NCBI GenBank assembly: GCA_008632985.1
Contig: QPGO01000128.1
Coordinates: forward strand, 1-64,000
Reading direction: 5' to 3'
Length of the DNA: 64,000 nt
Source: Psammoneis japonica
Lineage: Eukaryota
Position 1 is the first letter of the stretch; each line of letters begins with the position of its first letter. The notes beneath the pieces are model-generated. The model saw only the letters and a list, made by a program, of their open reading frames with translations. It had not been told where the DNA came from and did not search any database. The translations under genes and the position numbers were made by a program. Below, one piece after another: positions 31,561 through 56,320 of this stretch.

Positions 31561-31898
31561 GGACTATTTACAGCACAGTGTCGTGGATGCGGTTCGCGGG
31601 TTGAAGTTTTATAAAAGTTTATCCGCGAACCATACTGCAACAGCCAATGCCGGTATTGAACAAAAGCAGAAGCGAATCATCATCCGCATTGTTGTTTTCG
31701 TGCAAATAATGACTTTACCATTAGCAAGCATGTGTCTCTACAAGCATCCTTGCCCACACAAGAACAGCTTGTCCCGCAGCGAAACCAAAATAATGTGCTT
31801 TCGAGTTGCATTCGAGGATCAAATCATTTGGTTTGACTCATGATGATTGCTCTGTCTCACAAAATTCAAAACGACAACAAAGTCGAAACAACAAGAAG

Positions 31899-32978: not shown

Positions 32979-33478
32979 TTGTGCACGCACAACGGTGTGA
33001 GAAATGATGGAGCAAGATGAGATAACCGTTTAGCCGGCGACGAGTCTTACCTTAGGATTTTCATTTGCCCATTCTTCACTCAGCTCTTGAGTTAATCTTC
33101 GTTCTGTTTGCACAGAGTATCTCAAATTTATCGTATTCCCGATCTTGCATGCATTCCATATGCCGTTGGTTGTAGCTTGAGAAAGTCACACAGGACATGC
33201 TCTCCAATATCACGATCTTGTCTTGACGCCATTGTTGCCTTCATACACTTTGAAAGCTCGCCTTTTTCCTCCTGACGTTCGACAAGTCACTCTACCAAAA
33301 CTATTGGAGCCCATGAAGATCCCACGAGCTCTCATTATCTCTTTCGCATTTCATCCACGTGCAATTCAACAAGAGTCTACTACAAGTTACTTACTCTTCT
33401 GCTGGTTGAATCAACTCTCATTCTTGCTATACACAGATTCGCCGCTCTCTCGGTGGTACCCCATTTCATGCCCTTACA

Positions 33479-33867
33479 TCAAATTTGCTGCTGCAAAATG
33501 GGTTTCAACGGATCCGCTCGTGTCTCCTCTTTCAGTTTATCCGCCACAAAATCAGAAATGAGCATAACATTATCCCCCCGAATCACATACAATCCCAATG
33601 GAACCTTTTCGACATCTTGGTCCAACGAATAAATGAATTCTTGTGATTCTTTTAATATTAGGTTCTGAACCTGATCGTGTCCGGCCAATTCTCCTACAAT
33701 CGTTCGACCGTCGCAAGTCACAACAAGAACCATTTCTGCGAAAAAACGTGAGAAAGAGATGAGAACGAACGAGTGGATAAAAGTTGGAATCCAAACTAAA
33801 AATCAATGCTTCAGCTTTCTTTTCTTAGAAACTTACGGTTTTTCCAATCCTTCAAAGTACCCGCCAT
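33479..33867 (-). CDS. LSM8: U6 snRNA-associated Sm-like protein LSm8, two exons (33867-33837 and 33735-33479)
   Basis: MAGTLKDWKNQ joined across a GTAAG...GCAG intron to VLVVTCDGRTIVGELAGHDQVQNLIL...VPLGLYVIRGDN. Confidence 0.92.
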
Positions 33868-34126
33868 TGTGCCGACGACTCGCCCAACACACACACACAC
33901 ACACACACACACTCAACAGAATAGAGTAATAGATAGCCGTAGCGGTGGCTGCCCGATCCTGTTCGTACTTAGGCTGAGCTACTGCGCGTTAGACTACACT
34001 GCTGCGTTGCTGCTTTTCGATTGATGATTCGTTACGGCTGGTGCAGCCAGGAGCATGGAAAATTTAGACAGTAATAAGATTTTGGAGTTTGACAACGGCA
34101 AACCCCACGCCCCACGCATCTATTAA

Positions 34127-34520
34127 GGGTGGTCGGTTGCTACTTTTTTTAGCTCGAATTCGGCCGAATAGCTCGTGTTTTGCATGATTTTTCCTGAATT
34201 TCACCGTGCTTCACCGTGGTGAAAACAACAAGCCATAAGTCTGTGACGGAGGTGGTCCGTCTACCAACTCTCATTTATTTTATGTTTGTTATGTATCAAA
34301 GATTGTATATACATGAAAAGTTGGTAGACGGCAAACTACGTTTTTGAGAAACATCGATGTTTGTCATCATCGTCGTGCTTCGATCGCGGTGCTGATGGTT
34401 CTCGTTTTCGTGCGCGATCGGGTGTGACTATGAACAATTCTTGTATTCAAAAATAAACACTATAAAAAACCTTATTCAAATGCAACGGTAATTTTAGGAT
34501 AAACGCGGGGATGACCCCCC
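34127..34520 (+). mobile_element. Complete 394-bp MITE copy 2 with TTAA target-site duplication and GG...CC termini (Kolobok-like)
   Basis: TTAA at 34123-34126 and 34521-34524. The right end GGGGATGACCCCCC is the exact reverse complement of the copy-1 left end. No transposase ORF. Confidence 0.85.
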
Positions 34521-35049
34521 TTAATACCGTGCGTGAAAGAGGTGCCATAGCCGTAAGCCCGGTACATTGTCTGTTCTTCAACCCACTACACGTTAAATAC
34601 ATACCACGACTTACGTTAAGATCCCAGGCGCGGACAGACATTCTTTCCGAAGCGGTGGATTTTTGGTTTGGAGTTGATAGATGATGGATGCGCCGACCCA
34701 CAATCCGCCTTGTTGGAGCTGTTCTCCATCGTTTTCGTTCATTGAAGACATGGATGTTACTTTTGGGAGATCGTACCATTGGCTGAGGTCCTTGGTTTGG
34801 TGAGAACAAACGGAGTTGTCGTTGTGAAGAAAGCAAGTTTTTCTGTTGTCTCAGCCATTTCTGAGCAACAAAACCCACAATCGGATGTTCATTCATTCAT
34901 TTCACCTCCTCTGTTCAATGCCATTGCTTGTGTCGAACTAACACAGTTAAAGAAGGCATCCCATGTCTTGGGTGTGATGTGGGTGGGGGCTGTGGCGAGA
35001 AACATCTTTCTCTCGCATTGGACAAGAAACACCAAAAAACATGGAATTG

Positions 35050-36110
35050 ACACGATCCATGATCCAATGTTTGTTCATTTGCTGCACCTCCTCTGTTCAA
35101 TGCCATTGCTTGCATCAACTTGTCACAGTCACGAAAGGCATCCCATGTCTTGTGCATGCTGTGTGTTTGACCTGAGGTGAGAAACATCGGTCGCACTCGT
35201 GCGGTCTCGTGTCGGCAGTTCGTGACTGCGCCGACCCATGCTTTCATGTTTGTTCATTCATTTTGTCTCTTTGCTCACACTTCTTTGATTGAATCTTTGC
35301 TTCACAGACACAAAACAACTTTCTTCTCTTGGATTTGATTTCAATTGAAGTGCAACAGACCCACCAAGAAATGCCAAGTGAATGCCGTTGTTGACACGTC
35401 CACCGAGGAAAGCACCGATGCCGTTCGTGCGAGTGCCAGTGCTGACAAAAAGAACTGGGGTTCTTTCATCAACATTGAAATCAAAAGTGCTTGCAGCTCA
35501 TCAAGCAACTCCTCTGCTCATGATTCTTCCAGCGAAGGTGCTGACATTGAACAAAATGAAAATTCCAGTCTTCACTCGACTCACTGGCACACCCGACAGC
35601 CGAGGAGCATGATGCTGCCAATGAAAGCAAGTGAACAACAGCTTCAGACAATGGAAGAATTCGTGCAGTGTCGCCATTCCATTTTGTGACTCAATCAGTG
35701 TCCAGTGGATGAGACAAATGGGAAAAATGCATTCTCGGAACTCGGAAAGTGAGGAGAGGCATCGGCGCATGTCGTCGTTGGCAGGAATGATCTTTGTTCT
35801 TCACAGCTCGCACTGAAAGCAAATCCAAGTGAGCACAATGTTTTTGCACCTGCAAATCAAAGGTTCAATCAAAGAAGTTTGAGCAAAGAGATGAAATGAA
35901 TGAACAAACAAACAAAGTGTGGGTCAGCGACAATCACAAATGGCTGACACGAGACCACACGAGTGCGACTGACATTTCTCACCTCAGATCAAACACACAG
36001 CATGCACAAGACATGGGACACCTTTCGTGACAATGTTGAGTTGACACAAGCAATGGGCATCAACAGAGGAGGCAATGCGAATGAATGGACATCAGAGCAT
36101 GGGTTCTTGA
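35050..36110. repeat. Diverged inverted repeat, arms about 35050-35307 and 35851-36110, plus a partial direct copy at about 34870-35010
   Basis: CCCATGTCTTGTGCATGCTGTGTGTTTGA at about 35142 is the reverse complement of TCAAACACACAGCATGCACAAGACATGGG at about 35990. Confidence 0.9.
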
Positions 36111-38890
36111 CAACAGGCGAATGTGGGTGAGTCAGTGAATTGCAAAAAACACCAATCAAATCAAGACTTTGAGGAGGAATCGCCACACAGTGTCCTTCTG
36201 TTGGGGGCAAGAGAGACTGTCACACCCCGATTCCTCCTCAATTGTCAACATTGACAACCTCGGAACAGTGCACTCATCATGGTTGACGGCTTTTTTCCCT
36301 GCACAAAAAGCACGGAGAACGCGGATGATGGACAAGCAAAAAGCAAAAACATTTGGTCGAGCCATTCAAGCCACAATGCAACTTTCACGCAGAACTTTCA
36401 CGGAGTGTGCCTGGCAATCAATCTGCTGTCTGTGTGCCATGCGTGTCAGAATTCCCTCCTCAGCAGCCATCACACCAGCTCTGGTGTGACGACTGGTGGG
36501 AAAAGATCTGTCGTTGCAGTTGATCTGGACTCAACAACATTGTGTGAGAACAAAGTGAAATGCCATGCCAAGAACACAAACAAGTGCAATGCTGGAGAAG
36601 CAAGCAACACCGGTGCATGAACATTGACCACACAGGTGGCACGCCACCAGCAGGCATCACACCAGGCACTGGGCACCATCGCACACTCGTCAGCACCACT
36701 CCAGGCAGGTGCAGCTGAGGCACTTGGCACTCACACAGCAAGCAGAGGAAAAACGTGAATGACGCTGCTTTCTTCTTTGTTCCAAGGTCCACTGAGCATG
36801 ACCAACCCAGTCTGAGCACCCCACAGAGAGTCACAACCAAGTTTCCCAGCCTTCTTTGCTTCTTGCTGCAGCAGGTGCAGCCCCCCACTTCCTGCAAGAA
36901 CAGGCCATTTTCTCCATCTTCTTTTTGTCCCATGTGAGACAAAAACCTTGCAACATCCCTCACACCCACCAAGCTGATCAAGAACATCTCTTTTCATTGC
37001 ACTCTTGATCAGGCACAACCCCGCCATCCTCAAAAACCACTTTTCAACATTTTTGAGCTTTGCCACATGTCTGACCATGACACCCCACACTCACAAAAGA
37101 CCAAGCAGCTCCAACCACTTTTTTGTTGTGTTTTTGTCCATTCTTCAATTTTCATCCTGGCCCCACCTTTGTCTGGCTGGAGCACCGCCACAGCCCCCCC
37201 TGCTCCTCATTGTTTTTCAAGTTCTTGGACAAGGGGTCAAAATGTTGCCCCTCCCATTTTGCAGATGAGAGAAAGAAAATCACCCCCAACCACCAACATC
37301 AATGTCTTTCAACTGCTTTTCCAGGACATGACCCAGTTTCCTGGCCTTCTCCAAAACAAGCTGCCGGCCAGTGCAACCTCATGCTCCAAGAAGAAGGCTC
37401 ACCATGATGTCTTGGATGTGAGTTCATGGAACATCACCTCCCCACTTCTGGAGCCAAGCCACAAAAAAGAGTCAAAACTTTGTTCCCCATTTTTGAAAAG
37501 CAACATTCCAAGCCATTCCTCAAGAAGACTGCCAAGCTTTCCAGCACTCTTTGAAATGCTCCACTTGCTTTTGACCACCTTCCAAAGTTCTTTCCACATC
37601 CTTGACATGTGCTCATGGAACATTGCACTGCATCATCTCTTGCGCTTCTGTGTCAAAGACAAGGAGTCAAAGCACTGCTTTCCATTTTTGAAAAGCAGTG
37701 CTTTGAGCAATGCAAACTTCTGTGAGACTCCAGCCACAAATGCTGCTGAGCTTTCTGGCATTCCCGGAAGAGAGTGCTGCATTTTTCAACACATCCCAGG
37801 GTTCTCCCCATCCTCAACATGGCTTTGTCATGGAGCAAGGCAATGTTGGAATTCTGTGAATCCTGCCAGCTCAGCTGCCATTTTAAAAGGAGGGCAAAGT
37901 GCTGAAAAGGGCACATGGATCACAGACACTGGCCATGTTGATCATTCTCATCCAGAAAGACACAAGCTCCTTCTTGGTTGCTTTTGAAGCAAGTCTTTTT
38001 TCTTGTTTGGCTTGATGTCATTTTTGTCCAGAATGAGGGGCACGTGTGCCACTCAACACACAGTCTTCTGCTTCAACCAAGAAGTGGCCTGACATGTCCA
38101 ACAGTTTTGCAGCTTTTGCAATCTTGTTGGGTGACACACATGCACTTCCTTTGTTTTGCAACATTTCCACAGGCCTGCAAAGTCAAATGACAATGTGAAG
38201 CCAACTGCAGTGCTTTCAACATGAGCTCTGGTGGGGGCACTCTTTCCTCCACTTTGCTCAAATGTGGGCATTGTCACCCCCCACTGGCTCCTGAGCCAGC
38301 ACCAAACCTTTGTTGCCATTGCTGCTGTCCTCATTGAAAGATTTTTGAGCAGCTCCCAACAAAGCCTGACTTGTTGAGCTTTGTGTCATAAAAAAGAAAG
38401 AACAAAATGGCTGATCTTGGCCCAAAGGACACTGCAAACACACATGCACACAAAAATGCCATCACAAGTGGCAAAGCTGTCAAGTTGGATCCTCACGCCA
38501 TTGATGCAGGTCCAGAGTTGTGTCATGTCAATGACTCATTTGGAGCTCTGTGGAAGCAAATTAGATGACAGTGCAGTGGCATTTTTCCACACAGGTCATG
38601 GTGCACAACATGCTGCCATTGTTCACATGGACAAAAACACATGTTGCAAGTGCAAGGTGCAAGGTTTTGTAGAACCTGATGCTTCCATCTGGGTTTTGTT
38701 GCTTCCACACCATTCCATGACTTCTGGCCCAAACTGCTCCAATTGCAACACAACATCACACAACAACGCAGCTGTCATTCATTTTGTTCCTTGTCTGCCA
38801 CAAGAACTCCACATGTTGTCAAAAGATGCAACCTTTTCAAACAAGCTTTTGGCCCCAAAATGTGACAAGTTTGCAAGCATGGCTGCAGCT

Positions 38891-38892
38891 CA

Positions 38893-38926
<34 letters not shown>

Positions 38927-38928
38927 TG

Positions 38929-38960
<32 letters not shown>

Positions 38961-39001
38961 AACAGCAGCAACAACAGCAACAGCAGCAACAACAGCAACA
39001 G

Positions 39002-39033
<32 letters not shown>

Positions 39034-39064
39034 ACAACAACAACAACAACAACAACAGCAGCAG
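38891..39064 (+). repeat. (CAG/CAA)n microsatellite, about 58 triplets
   Basis: Read directly; flanked on both sides by AAGTTTGCAAGCATGGC. Confidence 0.97.
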
Positions 39065-41813
39065 TGCTGTGGAAAGTTTGCAAGCATGGCGTGAGCTCTG
39101 GTGGGGCTCTTTCTCAACTTTGCTCAAATGCAGGCATTTTCCCCAGCTGGCTCCCAAGCCAAAGCATTGAATTTTTGTTGTCATTGCCACTGTCCTCATT
39201 GAAAGCTTTTTGAGCAGCTTCCAAAGACAAACTTGCTGACCTTTGTGTGATGAAAAATGAAAAAGAAGGGACAGTGGTGCACATCAGCCCAGGGCACACA
39301 ACAAACAAACACACACACAAATGCCATCACTGGTGGCAAAGCTGTCAAGTTGCATCATGTTGTTGATGAATGTCCAGATTCATGTTGTGTCAATGATTCA
39401 TTTGGTGTTGTGGAAGTGAATTGGACTGTGGTGTGGTGGCATTGCTGCACAGGTGCTGCTGCCCAACGTGCTGCTGTTCACAGGCAAAAACACCCATGTT
39501 GCTTCCACGCACCGTCACCAGATGCACATCAATTTGTGTGCATGCTGAGTGTGCAAATGTGTCTGCAGATGACAACAGATGATTCATGCACCTCTGGCTG
39601 CCACCCACCACTGCTGCTCATGCGTGACTCCTGCTTCACAGGAAACAAAAATTGACAGAATTGCACAGAATGTGCACTTTTTTCCACATTCTGTTTGTTC
39701 ATTCCATGAAAAATGAGGCCTTTTTTTGCACTCCATTTCTGACTTTTCTGTGGAATGTGCCCTCATGTTCCATGTCAAAGTGTCAGCAATTGGAGCATGA
39801 CAGTCACATTCCATTCTGACCACCAAGACAGGTGCACTCCATTTTGGTGCAGAAATGTTGAGGCATCTTTTCATTGCATTGTGGCCACACGGAATGCCAA
39901 GCCTGTGTCTTCTGTGCATGCCAGCATTCCATGCACAGGACAGAGGTTGATGCATTTTTGCATTCTCTGTCATCAATGATGATGCCAACATGTTTTGTGC
40001 CATTCGGCACACAGCATGGAATGAGAACATTGCATGCAACTGAAGTGACAACATCTGCATGGTTTGTGATGCTGCTGCTTAAATTCTCTCCATTTGTCTC
40101 TCTGTCACTGCACACAGCATGGAATGAGAACATTGCATGCAACTGAAGCAACAAACATCCACATGGTTTGTGACACTGCTGCTTGAATTCTCTCCACTTG
40201 GTTCTCTGTCATTTCAATGATTCAAGCAACAACAACATCAAGATTGCAGGGGAAGGGGGTGTTGTCATTGGGATTTGGGATTGCTGTTGTGTTTTTCTGT
40301 CTTTTTTTGTCATGGAAAATGTCACTCAAATTGTTCATTTCTGAGCTTGCATCAAATTCTCTGTTGCAGTTCCTTGGCATGACAATGCAGAAGTGGCAGA
40401 TGAAGTCCTTAAATGGAGCTGGAGCAAGAATCCTGAAATCTGCACTTGTTTCATTCATTGCAATGTGGCACACACTCAAACACATGCTTTGAAGAATGCA
40501 TGAAGCAGCAATGGCTCAAACCTTGGGAGTGGCAGATGGACATGGAAAACAACACAAAAAATGTTCATGGTCACATTTGATGTTCATTTGACAATGCCTG
40601 GTAAAACGTCATTGAATTCTGTGTTTTTTTGTCTGTGCAGAATGCACTGCAATTGACGCCAGAGGAGAGGACATGCTCTGGACACAAATTTTTCTCTCAC
40701 TTCTCATCCGCTCTTTCACAAAACACAGAAAGCAACAACGGTGGCATCCAAAGCAACAGCGACAAACAACAGCAGCAGCAAGCACATGATTGTGTGGTTT
40801 GATGGGTGATGATTGTGGCACACTTGATGGCAAGCCATGATGGGGTTGACCAGAGCTTCAAAGTTTGCTTGCGCTTGCATTTTCTTCTCTCTTTTTGCTG
40901 TTGAGGTTCATTTTCCACAGGGTTCTGATTCTGAGTGTTGCTGCTCTGCAGCTGAGAGAGTGGTGCCACATCACTGGCCGCTCTGTTTTCTGGTGATGGA
41001 GATGTGTGGGCAGCCATGTCCATCGACAGTCAACAAGTGCTGCCATCTTTTTTGGCTTTTGTTCTGCAACCTTGAACCTGTTGCTCACTTTTTACTTTGT
41101 TGCATTGTGCTCATGTTTTGCAAAGGTTGAAGCACCCTTTGTCATCCAACGGGCAACCAAAATCATCAAAAGAAGAAACGCATCGTTCTGAGATTCAGCC
41201 AAGTGGTGCAGCGTGAAGCAATCGGTCATGCAAAGGCAGGCAGAGCACCAGCATGGGCAGAACAGAAGTTCTTGTTCAATGGAAATGCAGTGGCACAACA
41301 ACCCCATTTTAAAACATGGCTTTGTTCTGCAATGCACTCCATGCCACATGCTGTGGCTGGCACCCCACATTCCGATCGCAGGGCGGAAAGTGAGACCATT
41401 GCATTCCGTGTCTTTGATTGAGCGCAAGGAATCCACAAATGGAATGTGGCAAAAGGAATGGCAAATGGAGTGCACAATTTAAATGGCCTTTTTCTGACAA
41501 ACAAAATGGTGAAACGGAATGTGCAAATTTCATCCTGGGTGCGGAACGTGGTGTGCGTCAGAATGTGATGCGGATTTTGATGAGGCTTTTTTTGTTTGCT
41601 CTGTGTCGTCATTTGCACTCCATTTTGAGGTCTTTCCTGATGGTCACACACACATTCCGTGCAATTCATTCCATGGATTCTTCATCCTTGTCAATGGGAG
41701 TCATTCAAAAATGTCACAAGAGTCACAATTGGCACTTTGCATGAGGAAAAATGCCAAATCATGTGGAAATGCACACAATGTCATGTGAGAGGGTGATCAG
41801 AGCTGGTGATTTT

Positions 41814-41915
41814 TCGGGAACTCAATTGAAGTGTCATCTGACCAAAGGCATTTTAATTTGCTGCATGGTGAAGAGCAATGCCTTTGGTCAGATGACACTT
41901 CAATTGATTTCCCGA
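41814..41915. repeat. Near-perfect hairpin: 39-bp arms (one mismatch) and a 24-nt loop
   Basis: TCGGGAACTCAATTGAAGTGTCATCTGACCAAAGGCATT versus AATGCCTTTGGTCAGATGACACTTCAATTGATTTCCCGA. Confidence 0.93.
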
Positions 41916-42149
41916 GAAGTTGACATTTGAGTGCGGATGGGTGGACAGACTGAAATCAATTGTTTCTGGTGCTCTTCTGCACAATTTCCATGCAACGACT
42001 CTGAGAGCCGCAATGATTCCTGTTGCTCCTGTGCTTTGTTTGACCATTTCACATTTCTGGCCAACTGTGACACATCACACAACAACACAATCATTGCATT
42101 CATTGTTGTTCCTTGTCTGCCATGACAGTTCTGTGTTCATTGTTGAAAG

Positions 42150-42610
42150 ATGGAACCTTCAAACAAGCCTGCGGCCCCAAAACGTGACAAGTTTGCAAGC
42201 ATGGCTGCAGCTCAGCTGCAGCAGCAACAACAACAGTCAGCACCACCACATCGCAGAAAGTTTGCAAGCATGGCGGCAGCCCAAGAAAGGTCTGCTTCCA
42301 GCGAGAGTGCTGCATCAGAGACAAAAAAGGACGCCAATGATGACAAAGACATTGCACAGAAACAAAAAGAAGCCTTGCAGAAATGAATCAATCAACGTCA
42401 AGCTGTGCTGAGAGATTTGGAGGTGGCTGAGCAAAAGACTTGGAAACTGTTGGAATTGGCATCCACCACGACGCAGTTGCTTTCGGGTTTGAATTTCAAC
42501 CAAGATGAGGTTTCAGAGCTGAGCAAATGATGCCGTGATGCACTGCAACAGGTGCACTTGCTCCTCATGCCTCACACGCACTTTGTGGTGCCCTGTCAAA
42601 ATCACAAAAT
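42150..42610 (+). pseudogene. Decayed copy of a small helical host gene (weakly Mediator Med11-like); second partial copy at about 38825-39090
   Basis: MEPSNKPAAPKRDKFASMAAAQ...RKFASMAAAQ, continuing after stops as LRDLEVAEQKTWKLLELASTTTQLL...FVVPCQNH. The upstream region also aligns with 38720-38890. Confidence 0.35.
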
Positions 42611-45600
42611 TGACAAGCAAGACACCAAGAAAATGCAAGAAAACAAAAGCAACAACATGCACACAGCATGAGTTGAGGTGAGACCAGCCAAGGAAAAACA
42701 AGAGATTCCATCAGAATTTTTGCGACTGGAAAAGCAACAAGCAAACAATGATCTGGGGACTCCATTGAGCCAGAACACTTGCAAGCATCCACGAGAAGAG
42801 TGGCAACAACTCCAACACTCTTGAGTCATTTCGACTTTGCATGCCCCATGTGGTGAGTTGCTGCTGCTGAAAGGCAAGACAACAAGCCTCCAGAAGGAGC
42901 AAATCATCCTCAGCATCACTTTCACTGCAAGCATGCTTCCTTGCTTTGGTTTTTCTTTAGCTTGATGCAAAAAGACCTCCTTTTCTAGGTGGAAGAGGAC
43001 ATGGTCTGTGCTGTTGATGTGGCTGGCAAGTTGCTTTGCCTTCATGGCCATGCAAGCACAGCTGCGTTTCCTTCGTGGCCTCAGGTGCAAGCACATGCAA
43101 AGCACGGATTGCATTGTTTTGGCATTTTGTTGTTCAAAGTTTCAGAGCTGTTGCATCTGTCATCTGCCCCAGCGGTTTGTCTGCTTCTTAGTGTGTTGTT
43201 TCATGCCCTGACATGAACATGATGTGCGTCATTGTGTCGGTCATTTCTCCCCAAGGCAACAGTCACATTGGTCTGGAGCAGCTGCCGGCATCAGAAGTTC
43301 AACACTCGGAAACCAATTGATCAAGTTTTTGAGTGCAAGTTGTGAGTCTGCAGAGGAAGAATCAGCAAGACGGAGAAGGCAATCTTTTGTGCTTGGTCAG
43401 AAGCTGACTCCACTCCATCCCAACCTGCTCAGGGCCGCTCTCACGGTCTCACAACCAAATTTCTCAGCCTTTCTCAAATGGCACAGCTTGCATGCTCAGC
43501 CTTTCCCATTCTCCACTTGACAACAAGCAACTTGCAATTTTCCTCTCATTTTTTGAGCTCAGCAATGGAAAACATGATTGGACTTTTGCACGTGCAGCTC
43601 CCAAGCTGCACCAAGGTCTTCAAGTCTTTTTTCAAGCACCTGGCCAAGCTTTCCTGCCTTTTCATTGTGAGATGCATTTTCAACCACCATCCAAGAGATT
43701 GTTTTCTTTCTGCACAGAATGGCTCTCATTGCTTTGCTGCTCACCAAAGCATGTGGTGTCCTCAGCAAAAAATTGAAAAACACCTCAAGTTGTGATGCAC
43801 CCTCCATCAGATCTTCTTGTGGCCTCTCCTGAAGAAGAGGATGAAAACAAATCAAACAAGGAGGACAACACCAAAATGACATGCAGCTTTTGGCGTGGTG
43901 TTTGGCAGTGCAACAACTGACTTCAACGATCAAGATCAATGTGCCAATGCTGCCAATTGCAACACACCATTGACAAACAAATGACAGATGCCCCAAATCC
44001 AAATTGCATTGTTGCCAAAGTCAGGTGACTTTTCTGCACATGTGGTTGGAGTGCCCATGAATTGAGGCATCACCCCATCTCAGTGGATGTTGCTTGCATG
44101 CCAAATGGTTGCTTCTCAAACAGGCTTTTGACAGATTTTTTTTTACTGAGTTGCCAGCTCAGCTCCATCAAAAGCAGTTGGACATTGGGAACATCTGTCT
44201 GCCATTCAGCCTTGAAGTTGCTGCAGCATTGACAAACAACTGGGCCATTGTTGGCAAGGCACAGATGGCCCCACATCTCAGGCAAGATTGGCAGGAGGAG
44301 ATGCCTCCATTTCATCTCAAAGCTGTCCCAGTGGAGGAGTTAGAATCACATGGAAAGGAAGGTCACATCTTCTGCCAGAGTTGTGTCTTTGGCGCCACAT
44401 TGTCTCGGGTGAGCCACAAAGCATCGTGCAGATCATTTTGCCTTTCCAAGTTCTCACTCTGTTTCAAATCACAATTTTACAATGTTGGTCAGTCAAAGAA
44501 CATTGTGTGCAACAAAAACCATCAACCACCAGGAGTTTGCATTTGCCCAGCCAACACAGACAAAGTTTGTTTCATTGCACTTGCTCCACACAGACAAAAT
44601 GACCTGTCCACTGGGCACAGGCAAAGTGGTGAGCTCCATGCAGCAAGACTGTGGCACAGATGGGAAAGTTTGCATGTGCTGCTTTTTTGAATGTCTCGAA
44701 TCATGTGCTGTTTGTGTCTCATGAGCTGTCAAATGTCGCTGCAAAAGGCATGTGCAGCCAAGTTTCTTGTTGATGCAGACTTGCTTCTGGGCAAAGCACT
44801 GGATTTGCTTGGTGCCAATTGCAGCCACTTCTCTCATAAATTGAAAGCACAAAGTGAGGCAGACAAGCTCAAGGAAAAAACTCCTTGGTTTGGGTGAAGA
44901 AGTGCTGGCCCTTGGACTCAGTGAATTGCACAAATGGCAAGTGTCAGAGAGCCACTTTGTTGTTTGCTGTGGATGAGAACAAGCGGCAGGCTTGGCTGTG
45001 TCCCCAACTTTGGTTTGACTGATTTGGACAAGACAAAAAATCATGGCACAAAGAAAATTGTTTGTGGAAAAGAAAAAAGGGTGCCAGCTTCTCAAACACA
45101 CTTGTGGCTTGAAACAAATTGGCATGGTGTGATTGGCCTGGCAAGAAATTTGCACTTCTTGACCCAGGTGTGGAGCAATTTGTTGCTTGCAGAGCATGTG
45201 CACTCATCTTTTTCTGACTTGCACCCAGCAATGGTGTTGTGACAAACAACAAGTTGGCACCTGGTGTTGGCACACGTGCAAGGTTTTTGAGTTGCTGCAG
45301 TTGCCACAGGAGGAAGCCAGTCTCAGCCTGCTGTCACAAGAAACCAGCAGGGTGATTGAGGATGGGCTGCACATTGTCTTTTTGCCATGTTGCAGAGGAA
45401 GAACATGATGAGCACCAAGATCATGATGAACGCACTGCATTGGCAACAGTGCAAGTAAAAAAAAAAAACAGAACCCAATGCACAAGAACTCCACCCGTGC
45501 CTCAAGAACAGAGCATTGAGCAGAAAATGACATTGACAAAAACAGTGCAAAGTGAGGTGAGTTTTAGAATGGCAGCTGCATCTGATGCACATGAAGTGTT

Positions 45601-45859
45601 GGTCTTGCCTTGGAAAGCTTTCCTTGCCTGATGGAGGTGTCTTGCAAAACAAGTTGTGTGGGGTCCACTTTTTTTTCATCACTGGTTCTTCTGCCATTTC
45701 CCCGTGGTGCCCCGTCTTTTGCTGCAGCAATTTTCAATCACTGTGTCTCCTTTTTCTCATTCCCAAACACTCTTCTGACTTGACACAGCTCCTCCTGCAC
45801 TTGCAATTCTTTCCCCAAGCAAAAGAAAATAAAAAAAAGAAGATCAAGGTGCAAGCTTC

Positions 45860-47250
45860 AATGACGAAAGATGTTGCTGCAGTTGGAAAAAACCCCTGTG
45901 TGCACCATGCAATGCACTCTGTTTGCTGACTGGTCTTTTTGTGGCACCAAGATCAGCACTGGGAGCCCATGCATTGGAATGCCAGGGGTGTCATTTTGTT
46001 TCAGAAAAGCAGCTGTTTCTTCCAGTGCAAGCCATTTCTGGAAGCTCAGCAATGACAGTTGGTTGCTCTCCAATGGGTGGACTTTCTGACCCAAGCCATC
46101 ATGCTGAGGCATTTTGGAGGACCCTGCTTTTGTTGAAGCAACCTCAACAGCTGCCTTCAATGATGACGGCACTGTCATTTTAGACCAATCAATTGCTGCC
46201 ATGTCCAAAAAGTCTGAAGGAAAAGTGGCTCATGCAGGCTGACCATGCAAGGGTGACAAAGGGTTGCCAACCCCAACAAATGGTGCCCCATCAACAGACA
46301 CACTTTGTTGGCAAAGCTCAGCTCTTGTGGCGGGGCCACAACCACAGCTGGGCCACAATGTTGAGCTGCTGCATTAAACTCTGTTGGATGTCACCCATCC
46401 CCAGAGGCACATCAATGACAAGACAATCAAAACCACCCCAGCCAGCCATGCTCAACTCTTGGTCAATGAGTTGGGTGACGAGCAGCAACCATGGGCCTGC
46501 ACACCGTGGCACTGCCCCGTTGTCAATGCATCCGAAGCTTGTAAAATGAAAGGCTGATGTTTTTGTTGCAGTGGAGCAATTTGGCATCCCACAAAGTGGA
46601 CAATGTTGTTGCTTGGCTCTGTCATGGTGTGGGCCACAAGCTGGGGTTGCAGATGATGGCATCAAGAGTGCCTCCACCATGGCGCCTGACTCTTTTCCAG
46701 GGCAAAGGCAAGAGTGACCAAAGTGGTGGATTTTCCCACCCCACCTTGGCAATGGCCAATCACAAGGGCAATGGCACCTGCTTGTGTCAAACCAAAGGCA
46801 TCCATTTCAGTGTGTGTTTCTTGGGCCATCATTTGCATGTGAGCACCTTCTGCCCAAGGCAGAGCTTTCGCCAATTGTTTTTGCTGTTCTTGAGATGAGT
46901 CCTTGATGGAGCACACTGGTGTTGTAAATTGCACATCACAGGAAACATCGTTTTCATCATCTTTGCTCAAATGGCAAAGCCCAGCAGTTGTGTGATGACA
47001 TCAGCATTGAGATCAGGGCCAGTCATTTGCTCCAAGGTTTGCAGTTTGTAGAGCACTGGGCTGCCCTGCCATTTGGTGGGAGGAGGAGTTGGCAACAAGG
47101 AGGCATGCAGTGTTTGCAGTGGTCTGCTGGAAAACAACAATGACGACAGAGCAGAAGCCATTGTCACATGGATGAGAGCCAGAAAAATCAGCAAGAGATC
47201 AGCTTGCTGAAGGGGCAAGTGTGGCACCCACTCCTTCTTGTTGTCATCAT
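45860..47250 (-). pseudogene. HCF101: HCF101-like (Mrp/NBP35 P-loop Fe-S assembly factor with N-terminal DUF59) pseudogene, copy A
   Basis: GPDLNADVI..LGF, VSCDVQFTTPVC (DUF59), CQGGVGKSTT..LAFAL, SFGCIDNG, VTQLIDQ, WGGFDCLVIDVPLGMGDIQ. Fragmented by stops and frameshifts. Confidence 0.75.
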
Positions 47251-50039
47251 GACAACTTGATGGTTGGAAAAATTTTGGCTTGTTTTGTTTTGTTTTTAAT
47301 GAACTGATGAGGTTGACCAAAAACATGAGGGAAGTGCCTGACTTCCAACCACTTTGACATGAGTCAGCCAACACGAATGCTGGTGACACACCAAGAAGCC
47401 ACTTTTGACACACAAGAACCCAATTGATTGAGATGACATCACACAGCAGTGAGCAACCTTTTTAGATCCTCCAGTGCAGAGTGGCAGTTTTTGTTGTGGG
47501 GATGAAAAGGAGCAAAAACTGCAAGTCCACAGCCCCACAATCAAGCTGACCCAACTCCAACCAGCCAACAAACAAAATGTGTTTGCCGCGGCCCACACAA
47601 ATGCCACCAAGAATGCTGCTGGAGAGGAGCACAAACCCCTGGTTCCTTGTTGCACTTTCTGACTTTGGAGGGCTGACAGCGTTGCTCTTCATGCCTTGTA
47701 AAAGATGTTGGGTGGCCATCTCCATGCTTCAGAGCCCTGTGTGGCAAGGGCTTCTTGAGAGCAGAACTTTGACTGGTGTTGGGAACCACTGTCTCAATGC
47801 CTGTTGCAACTGGTGCACTTTTTATGAGCTCCAAGAACATTGTGTTTGGTTGTGAAAATGATCCCCAATCCATGCCAGTCAATTTTCCCTCCATTGTGAT
47901 GACAGCCAGTTGATTTTGCTGAGGCCCCTCATCTTTTCAGAAAACCAGCTCGAATCAAGCCAGTTGCAGGATGAGTTTGTTGGAGGGAGGAAGCGAATCC
48001 ACGAATGGGGCATGTGTCACACCCCCTCACACAGTGCATGATGTTGGCCAGTGGGAGCCAAAGCATGACACACAATGCAAACTGCATCCTTGCAGCAGCT
48101 TCACTTGTTGCACTGCAGTGCAAAAAAGAAAAAAAACATCAGACATCTGTCATGCCAAAAAAACCCAAATTTTGGGAATGCAACTGCTGTTTTGCAGACT
48201 CTGGGACTCTGTCAACAATCCACCTTAAAACAAAATCATGAAACACAACAAAGACAACCTTGTCATGGTCATGGCAGTCCAAGTCTCAAAATGACAGTAG
48301 AGAAAAGGAGGGTTCAAGTGCAAAACACAAAAAATGGCACCTCAAAAATTGGGTCTGCAATGATGGCAAACACATGCTGCACACACAGCAGGAAGTCTTC
48401 TTTGCAATGACAGAAGCTCGCTGCATTGTGTGTGGAGCTTTCAAGGAGCATTTTTGCAGTTGCAGCATCAGAGTTGCTTTCGCAACAGTCGACCAAGATC
48501 AACAATCTTTGTGTTGATTCATGTCGCCAAAACACAACAACCAACAATGACAAGCACATGGTCCATCGACATGTGTTAAATGCAAGAGGATGCAATGGTT
48601 GAAAGTGTGTCAAAGGATTTTTGTGAATGTGATGAGCCATTTTTGCGTCCCCACATTTGTGGCTGATTTGTGGATCTCAATGTTCAAATTTGGTGCAGGC
48701 GAGCGCATTGCACATGCGAGGCAAGATGTTGCAAGCATTGCAACAGCTTCGTTGTCATTGCAGAGACTGCTTTGTGGAGTGGAGTTGACATCATCATCTC
48801 TTGTGTCATTTGCCAAAGTGGCACATTGTTTTCTGCCTCCAGTGCATTTTGCCTGCCTCAATTGAGGGAAAAACCCAGCAGACCAGACACTCTCCAGGCC
48901 AGAGCAGCTGTCTGCTGGCATCTGTGGTTGGAAAGTGCACAAATGGCTGTGTTGATCTGTGGCATGTGAGGGCTTGGATGAGTGTGCACCAACATGAGAA
49001 GTGGTCAGTCCCACCCACTTGTGACTCAGCACTTTGCTGCAGTGAAAACTGCACAGGAATCCAACAATGACAAAAATGGTCAGATGACCTCTGCCAACAG
49101 CAATTCAAGCTGCACCTGACACACATTCTTTGTTCTTGAACACATGAGTTGACCACTTCAAACATCACATGCAGTTGCTTGGACAAACTGGCAGCTTGTC
49201 TGAACGAAAGATGAGTTGTGCTGAGCACTGTTGCTTTTGTGCGCAGTGCAGTGCTCAGCATCATTTTGGCAAAGGTCAGTGAAGTGACTGCATGCAATGC
49301 TCAAAGTTGTGAATTCATGCGCAAAAGAATTGGGAATGTGTGTCAGGTGCAGCTTGTCTGTCTGTGTCTCCTCCTTGCTGGCTCTGACCCACAACCGGGC
49401 TGGAGACAGATGGGTGAGACGAAGTTGGGGTTTGGGGCTGACCACATTGAAAATGACCAAATTTGCATGCGGTCTTTGTTGCACACAAAATGGTGTCCAA
49501 TGACTTTCAAAGGCTTCGGGACTTCACAAATTGGCGCCAAAGATTCCAAATTTTGAATTGCTGCAGTCATTTTTGGGCTGGGATGCCATTGACTCCTGGC
49601 CAGTCGACAGGCCATTTTTCCATTTTGAGGTCATTGGTCATTGGCATTTGAGTGCCGGTTGCTTTTGTCTTTCAATTCTTCACCCTTGGGTGTGAGTGTG
49701 ATGTGGGCAGTGGGACTTGGCCTGCAATGATGCCATTTTTCAGTTGAGATGATGGATTTTTGGGTTTTTGTGCTTTTTGTTGCACATGCAAGCTTGCTTT
49801 CAAACCGGTGGACATGCATGCAGAGACAACTCAACCCCCTTCGTTTCCATGCCTGACAAGGACAATCACACAATGCAAGCCTGGATTGTTGCTGCACTGT
49901 TGAAACCAATGTCTGATGTTTGCAACCTTCAGTTACACTGCCTTGCATGATCATTTGCAGCAGGAGCCTGAGAGCCTTCTTGGGGCCCTCTTGCATGCCT
50001 GAAGTGACCAAGAATGCCAGTGACATGACCTCCATTTCC

Positions 50040-50300
50040 CTGTCATCAAGCTTCTTCCTGAGATGAAGTCCCCCTTTCTTGTTGTCACTCTAGACAGAAC
50101 CACATGAACCCAGTTGTCTCTGTGGTCAAAGTTGTTGACAACCAGGCTCTCAATTGCCCCCCCCCCCCCCCCGGAGCTTTTGTGTGCAGTTGCTGCATTC
50201 TTGTTGCACAAAACTGGGAGCTGAGTCATCTGCATCCTCCAACTGATTTTTGGGGTTCTGTTGTCAATGAAACCCATCACAAGGATGGGCAAGTTGGCAG
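50040..50300 (-). mobile_element. C-terminal fragment of a PIF1-like helicase (Helitron-type); partial second copy at about 55350-55470
   Basis: MTQLPVLCNKNAATAHKSSG...NWVHVVLSRVTTRKG resembles the PIF1 motifs A.T.HK.QG and YV.LSR (Y->H). Confidence 0.6.
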
Positions 50301-50769
50301 CGCACATCTCTCTCCTTTGAAGCCACACAAAATGGACCTCACCACAGTGCACACAACTCACCTCATGCCTCAAGATGGATTGCAAAAATTTGAAAATTGC
50401 ATCCTCATGATCATTGAGCAGCATCATGACTTGCTTTTCCAACAGAGTTGCAGAGAAATGGCTTCCAAGCACTTGGCAGTGAGAGCTGGTGTGGTTGCTG
50501 TCTTGCCTGCAGCCACGGCAATGGCCACATCAACACTGTGTTCATTTGAACACTCGTGCTGTGCTCCCATTGAATGAATGTTGTTCCTTTGCTTCACAAA
50601 TCAAATTTGGCCATCATCCAGGAAAATCATTGGCAAGGATTCATTCCCATTGTTTGGCAGTGACTCACGCTTTCCAGAACTTGTCATCATGACACTTGAG
50701 ACATGGTCAAAGAGCAATCTCAAAAACAATCAAAGAGATCATGCACAAGAGCAGCAGCAGCTTGCAGTT

Positions 50770-51320
50770 GAACACTTGGTTTCCCACAAAGCAGACAATG
50801 TCATCATCCAGTTCTTCAATCATGGTGAACAAGCTGCGCCCACCAATGTGGTGCCCAGTTCTTGCAGGGCACCAAAGGCAATGAGTTGAATGAAGGGATG
50901 GATTTTTCCACTCTTCCTTTGCAGCTGCCAACCATGACAATGCCCCCCACTTGTGACAAACCAAAGTCATCCACTTCAGTGTGTGTTTCTTGAGCAGTCA
51001 TTTGCACTTGAACACCTTCTTCTGCCAAAGGCAGAGCTTGTGCCAGTTGTTTGCACAATTCTCAAAATGAGCCCTTCAGTGTGGTTGAGATTGGGGTCAA
51101 CCACACAAGGTTTGCAGAACATGGCCCTGCCATTTGGTGGGAGGAGTCAGCAATGAAATGAGGCATGCAGTGTTTGCAGGAGTGGTCCGCTGAAAACAAC
51201 AATGGCAACAGAACAAAAGCCATTTTTGTGTGTGAGCAAGAGCAAGAATGATTGGAAGAAAGGGATCAGCGCCCACTGCAGGGGCAAGTGGCACCTGCTC
51301 CTTCTTGTTCTCATCATGGT
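50770..51320 (-). pseudogene. HCF101: HCF101-like pseudogene, copy B (5-prime part only); block 46590-47720 is duplicated at about 50770-51730
   Basis: CKQLAQALP..VQMTAQETHTEVDDFGLSQVG..VGSCKGRVEKS, then SLFTMIEELDDDIVCFVGNQ. DNA aligns with copy A and its upstream flank. Confidence 0.7.
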
Positions 51321-52409
51321 GGCTTGATTGTTGAAAAAGAATGTGCTTGCTGCTCTCATCTCATGTGACCTGGCCATGTTGAGATGAGGGGGGTTGACAA
51401 AAAAGCCAGCACAATTGCAGGTGACACCAAGCTGCTTTGATGCACAAGAGCTCAGCTGATTTAGAGACAGCGTTGCACAGCAATGGCCTTCTTTGGGCCC
51501 TCCAGCACACAGCTGCAGTCTTTGTCATGGGGAAAGAAGCACAAAAAACACAAGTTGCTTCTTGGCTTCACCACCAAACTGATCTGACTCCAACCAACCA
51601 AAAATCTGCTGGTCCGCTGCACACACAAACACCGCTGGCAACAGAGGAGTGCAGATTGTGATGTGAGTGGTGTTGCACCAGGAGCCAACAAAAAAGCAAA
51701 CAAACTCAGCTCCTGGACTTGCCTTCAAGCAACTGGTGTTGCTTTGCTCGCACGACTTCTTGCGGTGATCTGACTCCAGGAGCAGGCAACCAGAGCAGGG
51801 ATGGGAGGACTTTGCCACCACAGCTGGCCCCTTTCCATTCCCAAGCTGGAACGGCAGCATGGCCAGAGGGACGGAGAGGTGGCGGCACTTTTAGACTGTC
51901 CATTTGGCTTGCTGCCAAAGCTCTTCGAAAGAATGAGCAAAGCAGCTCGCTTCCAAAAGCCAGCTGAAACATGCTCAATGATGACGACGATGCGGGGAGT
52001 GATTTTCAGTTGCGTCATCAACTGGCACTGAGAGGTCATCTCCCCATGTCGGTCTTTACGAGGCCAGTGGATGAAATGAGCCCAGAAAGCAGAGAAGAAC
52101 AATCAACTGTTGTCAACACGATCACCAATTATGACCAACGAAGAACAATTCCATGACACCCCATGACACATTGGACGTGAGACGGACAGACTCTCTCTAA
52201 AAATACGACCGACATGTTGCTGACAGACGGTCAGATCGTCACAATTCATTCGCTCCATAAAACGAACGAAACGTGACGCGCTTCCCTCACTGTTGCTTGT
52301 TGCTTGTTGCACTCCGCAAAATGGAAAAGAAATATCATCGTACTCGACACCGGAAGCAAAGGCTCTTCTCATAGTGCATTTTAAAACAAACGTCCAATAG
52401 AGCCGCACC

Positions 52410-53359: not shown

Positions 53360-56320
53360 CAGGGGATCTGTTTGCACTGATGCTTCTTTTGGCGGTGGCT
53401 GGTTCAACAGACTCTCAATCGCGCAGCAGCCAGCACTGAAGCTCAAGCCGGCAGATGAAGCCTTCCATTGAACATGATTGGTGGGCACTCAGCAAAAGTG
53501 CTCTGTCTGTCACCACACATTTGTTTGCATGGCTGCTGTAAAAAACCATAAATCTTGTTTACAGTGCTGCTGTGCTGTTGTCCAGCAAGCTGCCTGGTGT
53601 GCAGGCCTGCTGTCAGCGAACCAGCCAGCAGGGAAATGGCAAACTCACACTCATTGTTCCTGCCACAAAAACACATGCCCAAGCACTTAATTCAAGTGGG
53701 CTTGAGCCCATGCCAACCAGAGCAGAGAGGTGCTTTCATGGTGCAATGCTGGCTGCCACAGGGCTTCACATGGGGTTCATGCCACCACAAGTCATGATGG
53801 AGCGAGTGACAGAGAAAGAGTGCCTCTCAAATCTGTGGCAAAAGTGCCACGCAGCCACATGCTGCTGTTGATGGCTTCAGTGAATTGATGCAACCATGGC
53901 ACCTTCCACAAAGCATCACATTGAGCATGAAACTCTTCCAGCAGCAACTCTTTGTCAACAAGGGAAGACCAAATGGCAAGGATGCAATCCGCTCCTCAAG
54001 AGATGCAAAGTTGAGCTGGCTCAGGGTGTTCATGATTGAAATTCTGCTGCACTTTTTGGCTGTGGTGGGGCCACATGAGTGGATCAACAGTCAGTCCTTC
54101 CGTGGCAGACTGTGACATGATGACTTGCAATGCAACTCTGCCCCTCATCTGGTGCAACAGTTGCCTGACATTTCCAGCACCGCCACCCCTTCCTTCCAAG
54201 AATGTGCACTTGTTGGTGCAAGGATGAGCTGTTGTGAATCTGATGAGACAATGACAGAGATGATGTCCAGCAACAAAGACAGTGCAGTCTTGTCGGCTGC
54301 AGCTGTGGATGCAGTTGATGAGGGCATGTTCATGGAAGGATGACTCATTCAATGAGGAAGTGACCAAGGACAGATTTTTGTTGGCTGAAGTGCTGGTCTG
54401 GTTTAACAGCAACTCATTGCTCATCAGCATTTTGTTTGACAAAGGTGAGTTCTGCATTTGTCAAGCACAGCAAGAGCCGCGCATCAGCTGGGGTTGCATT
54501 GATTCACTGAGAGGAGGCAGTCAACAGTGGGGCCACACACATCCCTTCAAAGACTCTCAACTTGTTTTGCTTTGCATCTGGCAAAATGTTGATTTGCATC
54601 ACATCCCTCTCACTTTTTGTTTTGTTTCTTGCACAGGTGTGTTGCTTGGTGCAGCCATCTCAGTCAACGTGTCCTTCATTGTTGTTGCCACCACAGCTGA
54701 GCTCACTCAAAAACAGAACAACAGCCTGTGGCACCAACCAGCCAACAACAACAACAACAACAACAACAGCCCAAAAAAACAATGAGTGCCGCCACCAGCA
54801 CATTCACCAACATGGTTCTTGGGTGGGTGCACCAGCACCTCTGTGGCTTTTGCCTTTTTTTGGATGCAAACAAAGGCGACAAGAAAACATGCCTTTTTCC
54901 CAGCAACAAGAGGATGATCCTCCTTGCAGTGGCACTGAGCCACTTGCTCAAGAATTTTGATGTTTGAACGGGTGTGATGTGTGTTTTCTTGGCAGCATGC
55001 CCCCACAGGAGCTCACCCATCTTCGCTCAGTCTTGTTCTTGTGGCTGTTCTGGCCAATCTGTCTGTGTCTCCCCCCTGCCCCTGCCCTGACCCCAAATGG
55101 ACCAGAGACAGACGGGTGAGATAAAGTTGGGGTTTGGGGCTGACCACTTTCAAAATGACCAAATTTGCAAGCGGTCTTTGTGTGCGAAATGGAGCGCAAT
55201 GACTTTCACACATGGTTGGGTTTTCACAAAAATTGCCATGTTTGCCCATGCAACATTTCAAATTTTGCACTGTCTTGGTCATTTTTGGGTTGGGATGACA
55301 TTGACTCCTGGCCAATCGATTGGCTGTTTTTCTGTTTTGAGGTCATTCATTTCCTGCCATCACAAGCTTCTTCCTGGGACAAAGTCCCTTTCTTGTTGTC
55401 ACTGCTGCAAACAGAACTGCATGAACCCAGGAGTTGTCTCTGCAGTCAAAATGTTGTTGTTGACAACTGGGCTCTCTGAGGCAAAGTGGCCTCTGTGTCA
55501 AACAAAAAGATGCCTCATCTTTTCATTCAAACACTGGAACTTCAGCAAAATGCATCACTCAGCTTGTTGTGGTTGTGGACAGGGGTGACAAGGTCCAATT
55601 CTTTGGGCGCACCTTCTTGACAAGGATGTGAGGAATGGATTGCTGGAAGATCAAGTTTCTTGACTTTCAGATGTTGCCATGAAGATCCGCCAGAGGAGAA
55701 TGGCTGGCCTGCTGTCAGGACTTGTCTGATCACAGCCAATGAATGAAAACACCATGGAAAACCACATCTTTGGCTTTGTCAGTTCGTTGAGAACTGGGCA
55801 AAACAAAGCCCAAAGACAACAAGCACAACAAGACACAAGACAGAGCAGCATGTTGCCAATGATGGTGCATTGTGTGATGTTGTGTGCACGCTCCACCTGT
55901 TGCACACCTGGCCATTTGTGGGCGCTGCCAGCACCATCATCAAGTTGATCAGAGAGGCACATGATGGAAGACGATGCTGATGGGACATTTTACAAAACTC
56001 ACATGGATGTCACAAAGTTGCAGCTTGCTGGTGATGAATGTCCAAACAAAACAAAAGAGCATTGCAGACATGTCCTTTTCCCTGACATTTTTTGATGAAC
56101 AACACGCTGACGTCATTTGTGCGTGTTGTTTGAAGCATCTGACATTTTTGCTCAATGTTTGCAAATGAAGAGACAATGAGACACAGCCATTCAGCGAAGC
56201 GTCCAGTTTGCAGTGATTGCTGCTGGTTCCCACCTTGTGCACTGTACCAGATGCCAGATCTGGGATTTTGACATTTTTTGAAAAGAGATTCCTGTTCACT
56301 CTTCGTCGAGCTCTGGGAAA
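53360..56320. other. TpA-erased domain 5; contains a copy (about 55060-55470) of 49360-49640 and 50030-50150
   Basis: TA is scarce. AAGTTGGGGTTTGGGGCTGACCAC and AAAATGACCAAATTTGCA are shared with 49420-49470. Confidence 0.88.

Follow-up and report, generated by a model that had tools for sequence, protein, structure and literature searches.

The 64,000-nucleotide stretch of the diatom Psammoneis japonica analyzed here (GenBank assembly GCA_008632985.1, contig QPGO01000128.1, positions 1 to 64,000 of the forward strand; hereafter "the window") contains five sharply bounded domains in which the dinucleotide TpA (TA) is nearly absent. The TA sites that remain in these domains are most probably the survivors of a context-dependent hypermutation that is specific to TpA, and of which the domains are the footprint. 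The change is A:T>G:C at TA and affects both strands. Its context dependence spans at least four flanking positions; the neighbor 3' of the A certainly matters, and a rule drawn from the base 5' of the T alone is excluded.

In the process that we propose, TA would change to TG on one strand, read as TA to CA on the other, and would do so nearly to saturation in all five domains. Seen from the edited A, a T at position -1 would be obligatory, the rate would follow the base at +1 in the order T ≥ C > G > A (approximately 3.7 : 3 : 2 : 1), and any base other than A at +2 would speed the change about 2.6- to 3.2-fold relative to A. Sites of the form RTAY (R, purine; Y, pyrimidine) would thus vanish first, and TA within TYTARA (that is, TAAA, TAGA and their complements) would persist.

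Two compositional states in the window

The G+C content is even across the window (0.44-0.52), and its dinucleotide content falls into two states, ordinary and TA-depleted. Ordinary DNA, about 28 kb in all (28.2 kb when pooled), has an observed/expected ratio (o/e) of 0.4-0.77 for TA, about 1 for CG, and about 1.1-1.3 for CA and TG. In the depleted domains, which are 2.5-17 kb long and have abrupt TA edges (Table 1), TA o/e is 0.00-0.11, the longest run without any TA is 2936 bp, and CA and TG each reach 1.5-2.1 times the expected level. CG, too, is scarce in four of the five domains (o/e 0.07-0.45, with values up to 0.69 in domain 4); in domain 3 this ratio is about 0.8. The density of residual TA is highest in domain 3, at 3.7 per kb vs 2.1 per kb in domain 4.

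Dinucleotide frequencies were compared between 23 normal and 32 depleted blocks of 1 kb. AA/TT was unchanged (168 per kb in depleted vs 166 per kb in normal blocks, p = 0.56), bearing out the view of the initial annotation, which had been made from the letters of the window, that the retention of AA speaks against the WA signature (W, A or T) of DNA polymerase eta. We therefore set that signature aside.

First-neighbor context of the surviving TA sites

The initial annotation had listed the residual TA sites of domain 4 and described them as mostly YTAR. All ten YTAR sites that it named were correct (TTAG at 38562, 42958, 45565, and 46181; TTAA at 40080, 40410, 41310, and 41480; CTAG at 42986 and 50091), as was its statement that domain 4 contains no RTAY: the 36 TA sites comprise 20 YTAR, 11 RTAR, 5 YTAY, and 0 RTAY. 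The remainder had been given as GTAA, TTAC, and GTAG; these are present, but three ATAA and one TTAT had gone unlisted. Pooling the five domains, and leaving out a TA-normal island of 376 bp within domain 1 (6399-6774), yielded 86 TA sites, distributed as 46 YTAR, 39 mixed, and 1 RTAY, relative to 146 YTAR, 574 mixed, and 291 RTAY among the 1011 TA sites of the 28.2 kb of normal DNA. The one exception is the GTAC at 10123, which is the sole RTAY within any depleted domain. A second RTAY that the annotation had placed among the depleted domains, the GTAT at 3818, lies just outside domain 1 and is the final TA ahead of it.

The distribution over these classes differed between depleted and normal DNA both for the pooled domains (χ2 = 93.6, p = 5e-21) and for domain 4 alone (χ2 = 48.4, p = 3e-11). 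The annotation had held that YTAR:RTAY ratios equal to those of normal DNA after correction for composition would count against its inference; the skew stands after such correction. From the domains' own dinucleotides on either side of the site (xT and Ay), YTAR is expected at a fraction of 0.315 and was observed in 46 of 86 sites (p = 3.5e-5), and RTAY is expected at 0.192 and was observed in 1 of 86 (p = 3e-7). Domain 3 has the same skew as the others (12 YTAR, 8 mixed, and 0 RTAY).

Survival, expressed as residual TA of each class relative to the normal DNA of the window, was highest for TTAA and for CTAA/TTAG (0.29 each), followed by CTAG (0.14), GTAA/TTAC (0.11), CTAC/GTAG (0.053), ATAA/TTAT (0.036), ATAG/CTAT (0.013), and GTAC (0.01), with ATAC/GTAT and ATAT both at 0. 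These class values were fitted by an additive one-position model.

A second base beyond the edited A

The base at +2 matters as much as that at +1, and it is absent from the TAY rule of the initial annotation. In strand views of the survivors, the base at +2 is A in 65% of cases, vs 29% in normal DNA. Either TANA or TNTA is found at 79 of the 86 survivors, including 35 of the 36 in domain 4, vs 495 of 1011 sites (49%) in normal DNA. The hexamer TYTARA, with a survival of 0.49, is nearly immune. At the other extreme, sites that lack R at +1 on either strand number 291 in normal DNA and are represented by 1 survivor. Adding +2 to a model with +1 alone improved the fit considerably (twice the log-likelihood difference, 51.7; likelihood-ratio test, p = 3e-11). 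The fitted relative rates are 1 for A, 2 for G, 3 for C, and 3.65 for T at +1, and 1 for A, 2.75 for G, 2.6 for C, and 3.2 for T at +2; the order at +1 is T ≥ C > G > A, with no clean division between pyrimidines and purines.

Which side of the site is read

Survivors cannot separate a preference for "A in TAY" from one for "A in RTA", which are mirror images at each site, whereas the products of the change can. A TAY preference predicts that RTAR becomes RCAR and that YTAY becomes YTGY. In the four CpG-decayed domains, the excess over normal DNA was 31.7 per kb for RCAR and YTGY vs 12.5 per kb for RTGR and YCAY (bootstrap confidence interval of the difference, 13-25). We then fitted all NTAN, NCGN, NTGN, and NCAN counts jointly by likelihood, together with a free model of CpG context. 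The model with +1 was better than its mirror, in which only the base 5' of the T counts, by a difference in negative log-likelihood (dNLL) of 23.9 in the CpG-decayed domains and 18.2 in domain 4, and a free two-position model placed nearly all of the weight on +1. The GC dinucleotide was more frequent in depleted than in normal blocks (72.5 vs 52.9 per kb, p = 2.6e-8) and AT was less frequent (55.8 vs 68.4 per kb, p = 5.6e-5), as predicted by TAC>TGC and TAT>TGT. A pair of TA-normal genes with 93% identity, which differ by TA vs TG or CA at 18 sites, was uninformative, the mixed-class sites dividing 5 to 6 between the strand models in a hand tally.

Several results pull the other way, or limit the weight that the foregoing can bear. 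When -2 and +1 were given the same weight, so that no strand is chosen, the resulting symmetric model was only 2.4 dNLL units worse overall and was the better of the two in domain 1. In the GTPase gene of domain 3 (described below), Tyr had become His in 8 cases and Cys in 6 under a looser cut, vs about 8.75 Cys among 14 under a "TAY only" rule, and Tyr codons that follow a pyrimidine gave 4 His to 5 Cys. Measured against 14 homologous metagenome genes (26.2 kb), the product excess in domain 3 was 9.9 per kb for one product class (P) and 10.8 per kb for the other (Q), with no strand asymmetry. The gain of TGC/GCA equals the maximum possible, and that of TGT/ACA falls below the prediction of a neutral split. 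The product tests presume that the domains started at the composition of the neighboring DNA, and they are confounded by CpG decay, which is itself context-biased. In addition, the rate fit leaves out 6 of the 86 survivors, which lie in hexamers unseen in normal DNA; the effect of +2 on the products is weak; and what the window preserves is a footprint, with no events observed.

These points bear on an alternative that we regard as unlikely, though one to be taken seriously: that thymine is the base attacked, by T>C change at RTA (e.g., TET/JBP-type oxidation followed by mispairing with G), or that a dimeric enzyme reads a palindromic RTAY. Oxidized thymines (5-hydroxymethyl- and 5-formyl-uracil) are mutagenic, and A>G on one strand is T>C on the other, so that the two cannot be separated by sequence alone. 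The near parity of the symmetric-site model with the A-centered one, the lack of strand choice in the GTPase gene, the flat gene-family baseline, and the fact that the refractory hexamer TYTARA is itself palindromic all favor this alternative; against it, the +1-only model is slightly better in the four CpG-decayed domains and the free model weights +1. On balance we lean, without great conviction, toward a 3' side read on the edited strand ("TAY only") over a palindromic duplex RTAY.

The preference for A in TAY that the initial annotation had put forward is thus upheld in part. RTAY indeed disappears soonest and YTAR holds out longest, the neighbor on the 3' side of the edited A does matter, and a purely 5' rule is rejected; the palindromic RTAY fits almost equally well, the GTPase gene, which anchors the direction of change, shows no strand choice, and the role of the +2 position had been missed.

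CpG decay alongside TA loss

From normal to depleted blocks, CG fell from 54.8 to 19.2 per kb. In the four decayed domains, CpG survival was 0.16 for YCGR, 0.23 for mixed contexts, and 0.39 for RCGY, C being most protected after G; gains of AG/CT together with losses of GA/TC suggest that YCG>YTG dominates. Because domain 3 has lost TA without losing CG, the loss of TA is independent of CpG decay. The other four domains may have lost CpG through a distinct process, in which methylated cytosines of silenced DNA decay more slowly. Cytosine methylation is described for diatom transposons (PMC9998398), and decay of methyl-CpG would resemble the CG>TG/CA change in four of the five domains; it accounts for the CpG part only.

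This decay offers another source for the residual TA, albeit an improbable one. Were these sites new, arising from C>T at YCA by the cytosine deamination that erodes CpG, their skew would be uninformative about the mutator. The domains are very rich in CA and TG (about 230 per kb), CpG decay favors a pyrimidine before the C, and 67 of the 86 residual sites contain TTA/TAA, all of which fit such an origin. A hand calculation from the domains' own CA/TG contexts with a 2.5-fold Y bias, however, gives about 29 YTAR, 45 mixed, and 12 RTAY, rather than the 46, 39, and 1 observed, and a bias above about 40-fold would be needed to account for the difference. Moreover, residual TA is densest in domain 3, where CpG has hardly decayed, and it is skewed there in the same way.

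Direction of change

The direction of the change is best seen in domain 3, which consists of a gene for a dynamin_N and DUF7605 (SLIP-GC-like) GTPase with diatom relatives, together with flanks of about 1 kb on its upstream side and 0.2 kb on its downstream side. Tyr codons had been named by the initial annotation as the prime target, and this proved apt: the two long open reading frames (ORFs) of the gene encode 0 Tyr in 860 amino acids and 1 in 618, respectively, against a mean of 2.05% in 26 homologs. The 14 columns in which Tyr is conserved are occupied, in the ORF of 860 amino acids, by His (7), Cys (3), Phe (2), Val (1), and Asn (1), and other conserved columns are retained (Trp, 11 of 11; Phe, 15 of 16; Asn, 14 of 15). 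Among the matches listed, all 120 homologous proteins keep Tyr (minimum, 0.67%; median, 1.9%), and the 34 homologous metagenome loci have a TA o/e of 0.18-1.14; neither set includes a further Tyr-free relative. The metagenome locus with the lowest ratio (L007:1137-1793; 66% identity, TA o/e 0.18) has 2.3% Tyr and is not hypermutated in the same way.

Old duplicates within the domains provide a second line of evidence. Double differences, with TG in one copy and CA in the other, occupy 13 of 433, 11 of 289, 7 of 517 (domain 3b), and 5 of 294 columns, vs 0 of 1256 and 2 of 389 columns in TA-normal pairs. Finally, in mixed contexts the gain of CA/TG (44.2 per kb) balances the combined loss of TA and CG (43.8 per kb). 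No strand-coordinated tracts were found in the domains beyond those of normal DNA. The replacement of Tyr by His or Cys, the paired TG/CA differences, and the mass balance show that the domains arose through mutation in place.

We consider it very improbable that the domains are instead foreign or otherwise special DNA, poor in TA and CG from the start or through selection, with no mutator involved. Most of the domains are without recognizable genes, as might be said in favor of such an origin; yet conserved Tyr residues have been replaced though the listed homologs keep them, the mass balance fits a host-like start, and the Tyr result and the double differences exclude both native composition and selection.

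Domain 4 contains a putative relic of an Mrp/NUBP-type (ParA-like) P-loop ATPase gene, whose matches are weak (Pfam ParA, E = 5.5e-6, 26.4 bits with a cut-off of 27.1; PDB 3kb1 and 8zkc, E about 0.05). Its "DYL" motif now reads "DCL" and its "PPGTGD" motif "PLGMGD", and the relic may thus show TA loss and CpG decay at once.

Targets, copy number, and content of the domains

Table 1. Depleted domains and associated features of the window
Feature	Position	Strand	Description
Domain 1	3819-12119		TA-depleted, CpG-decayed; 22 TA without the island 6399-6774, of which YTAR 10, RTAY 1
Domain 3	19718-25135	-	20 TA in 5.4 kb; CpG o/e about 0.8; GTPase gene inside
Domain 3b	28894-31445		5 TA; CpG-decayed; tandem duplication 29685-30194 / 30201-30706 inside
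Domain 4	34949-51892 (16,944 bp)		36 TA, o/e 0.00-0.07; CG o/e 0.07-0.69; CA/TG about 2x
Domain 5	53689-56245		3 TA; CpG-decayed; diverged repeats common to domains 4 and 5
GTPase gene (dynamin_N + DUF7605, SLIP-GC-like)	19934-22513, 22260-24113	-	Two long ORFs; domain 3
Putative Mrp/NUBP-type (ParA-like) P-loop ATPase relic	46321-47000	-	Domain 4
High-copy repeat (about 100 copies), TA-normal	6391-6776; 34115-34502		20 TA, inside domain 1; 25 TA; 83% identity

As judged by the word depth of run X1 (about 66), most of domain 4 is single-copy, with embedded segments at about 4-28 copies (depth 1100-1855 at 41172-42505 and 765-945 at 49176-50509). The TA-normal high-copy repeat, one copy of which forms the island in domain 1, reaches a depth of 6860 over 33835-34501. 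When its two copies were compared, TA was kept only by the outside copy at 8 sites and only by the inside copy at 3, and the island either was inserted after hypermutation or is not a target. Because single-copy DNA is affected and an adjoining repeat of about 100 copies is TA-normal, duplication is not the trigger.

We found no transposon or virus families, and no reverse-transcriptase domain, by Pfam searches of 124 ORFs (≥100 amino acids) or of the read-through six-frame translations of domains 1, 3b, and 5. Rfam and tRNA scans likewise yielded nothing, and terminal repeats around domain 3 were limited to short, chance-like matches. The longest ORF of domain 4 (349 amino acids), searched with HMMER against 1.84 billion proteins, had one match, which is itself a translated tandem repeat. 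A read-through frame of domain 1 (about 11200-11320, - strand) has a sub-threshold match to ATP_bind_1, the GPN-loop GTPases (E = 1e-4, 22.6 bits with a cut-off of 27); together with the putative ATPase relic of domain 4, it hints that the domains may hold decayed cellular rather than viral genes. Over most of domain 4, runs X2 and X3 provide no coverage, which says nothing about expression.

Several other features of the window were noted. An ORF in domain 5 (53999-54460, - strand) resembles SNAD1, one of the AID/APOBEC-like deaminase families, at a level below threshold (E = 0.008, 16.5 bits with a cut-off of 25) and probably by chance, and domain 4 includes a long microsatellite of the CAG/CAA type (poly-Gln-like) at 38889-39072. 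Domain 3b sits between two copies, 93% identical and both TA-normal, of a Laminin_G_3 (concanavalin-like lectin) gene (27354-28609 and 31750-33005). Run X2 behaves like RNA: one of its contigs, at 32501-34227 (- strand), lacks 76 nt (32975-33050) and 101 nt (33736-33836), each bounded by GT..AG on the - strand, and thereby marks two short introns in a gene adjoining domain 4. The best named relatives of a threonine-synthase ORF (13694-14872, - strand) are from Ditylum, Thalassiosira, and Nitzschia, with 70-80% identity; these diatom relatives, like those of the GTPase gene, identify the window as nuclear DNA of a diatom. At the start of the window, a tandem array with a 126-bp unit (3-1163; 9.2 copies, 82% matches) adjoins NACHT-type (NPHP3_N) ORFs (1669-3226, - strand), and together these look like an NLR-like gene with highly similar, 42-amino-acid WD40-type repeats. 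The array has a TA o/e of 0.12 and normal CG, which seems to reflect coding composition rather than hypermutation; having the look of a coding WD40-type repeat, it was dropped as a test of copy against master.

Comparison with known systems

The closest likeness is to a process described in mutation-accumulation lines of Bigelowiella natans (10.64898/2026.01.13.699255). As given in the main text of that preprint, 231 of 302 new mutations fell within two integrated viral regions, and 230 of these 231 were A>G or T>C, all at TpA; the mutation rate was raised about 1000-fold, and the genome contains 124 clusters of 1-kb windows poor in TpA and rich in CpA and TpG (10.64898/2026.01.13.699255). Mettrop et al. 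propose an ADAT2-like DNA adenine deaminase (10.64898/2026.01.13.699255). Shared with the window are A:T>G:C change at TpA on both strands, confinement to discrete regions, a gain of CpA and TpG, and an effect on single-copy DNA. There are also differences. B. natans is a chlorarachniophyte (Rhizaria), whereas P. japonica is a diatom (Stramenopiles). Depletion is near-complete here (o/e 0.00-0.07 in domain 4), in contrast to a Rho of 0.45 in the nucleocytoplasmic large DNA virus (NCLDV) region of B. natans (10.64898/2026.01.13.699255). The B. natans targets are viral, whereas here we found no viral or transposon hallmark in the ORFs and frames searched, and one target is a gene of a diatom family. 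Lastly, four of our domains are also depleted of CpG, unlike anything in the main text of the preprint, which mentions neither flanking context nor CpG, although its figures and supplement may hold more (10.64898/2026.01.13.699255). Our literature searches found no paper on TpA hypermutation in diatoms; a Rhizoctonia paper that came up in them repeatedly uses standard indices of repeat-induced point mutation (RIP) only.

The B. natans lines, which were Illumina-sequenced and in which the same signature is reported to arise de novo (10.64898/2026.01.13.699255), also speak against a sequencing or assembly artefact. That modified bases at TA and CG were simply miscalled is scarcely credible. Both self-complementary dinucleotides are lost together in four domains, as miscalling might produce, and run X1, possibly the source of the assembly, is not independent support. 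Its contigs (mean 31-mer depth about 66), however, match the TA-free sequence for kilobases at a stretch with 0-3 differences (e.g., 3 in 5737 bp), an exactness of words beyond the reach of error-prone long reads, and domain 3 loses TA without CG.

RIP in fungi resembles the process in that it makes dinucleotide-specific transitions on both strands in sharp domains of the nuclear genome. It makes TpA from CpA, however, and needs duplicated DNA, whereas here TpA is lost, CpA and TpG are made, and single-copy DNA is affected; the opposite skew and the single-copy depth over most of domain 4 led us to reject it. ADAR hyper-editing through an RNA copy would share A>G change, a 5' U preference, and clustering. 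ADAR favors G after the edited A, and here G at +1 is second slowest; both strands are hit and no strand tracts are seen, and we reject this route as well.

Bacterial TadA edits an A that is followed by C, in the UACG loop. The likeness to TadA, to which the initial annotation had pointed, is loose: TadA and ADAT2-ADAT3 share with the process in the window a T or U before the edited A (only TA is lost here), and C is a good base at +1, but here C has no advantage over T in that position, A at +2 protects, and both strands of genomic DNA are acted on. To our knowledge, no effect of A at +2 has been described for TadA. As proposed for B. natans, deamination of adenines in DNA, carried out by a TadA/ADAT2-like enzyme, is a plausible chemistry for the change, and one that we put forward tentatively, at somewhat short of even confidence.

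Implications

TpA-directed hypermutation was first reported in 2026, from one alga, with neither an enzyme nor a rule beyond the dinucleotide in the main text of the report. What is new here is the context rule, comprising the order at +1, the protection by A at +2, and the refractory TYTARA, and a TpA footprint in a diatom. Diatoms belong to a branch of SAR (Stramenopiles, Alveolata, and Rhizaria) other than that of the first-reported alga, and the presence of the same footprint at saturation suggests that the process is widespread among major marine phytoplankton. The rule provides a fingerprint against which candidate deaminases or thymine-modifying enzymes, and published de novo mutations, can be tested.

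The process also has a consequence for gene annotation. Every Tyr codon is erased by it, as are the stops TAA and TAG, and no new stops are created; dead or edited genes therefore keep long open frames and will be mis-called as intact.

We further speculate, with considerable reserve, that diatoms and chlorarachniophytes alike possess a DNA-editing system dedicated to the removal of TpA from selected domains of the chromosomes, single-copy DNA and a gene of a host family among them. It would act by way of a palindrome-like hexamer, fast at VRTAYB (V, not T; B, not A) and blocked at TYTARA, with a duplex-reading enzyme shared across SAR. If so, the agent would be an enzyme that reads the duplex rather than a borrowed tRNA deaminase, and the TYTARA sites left behind would form its negative image.

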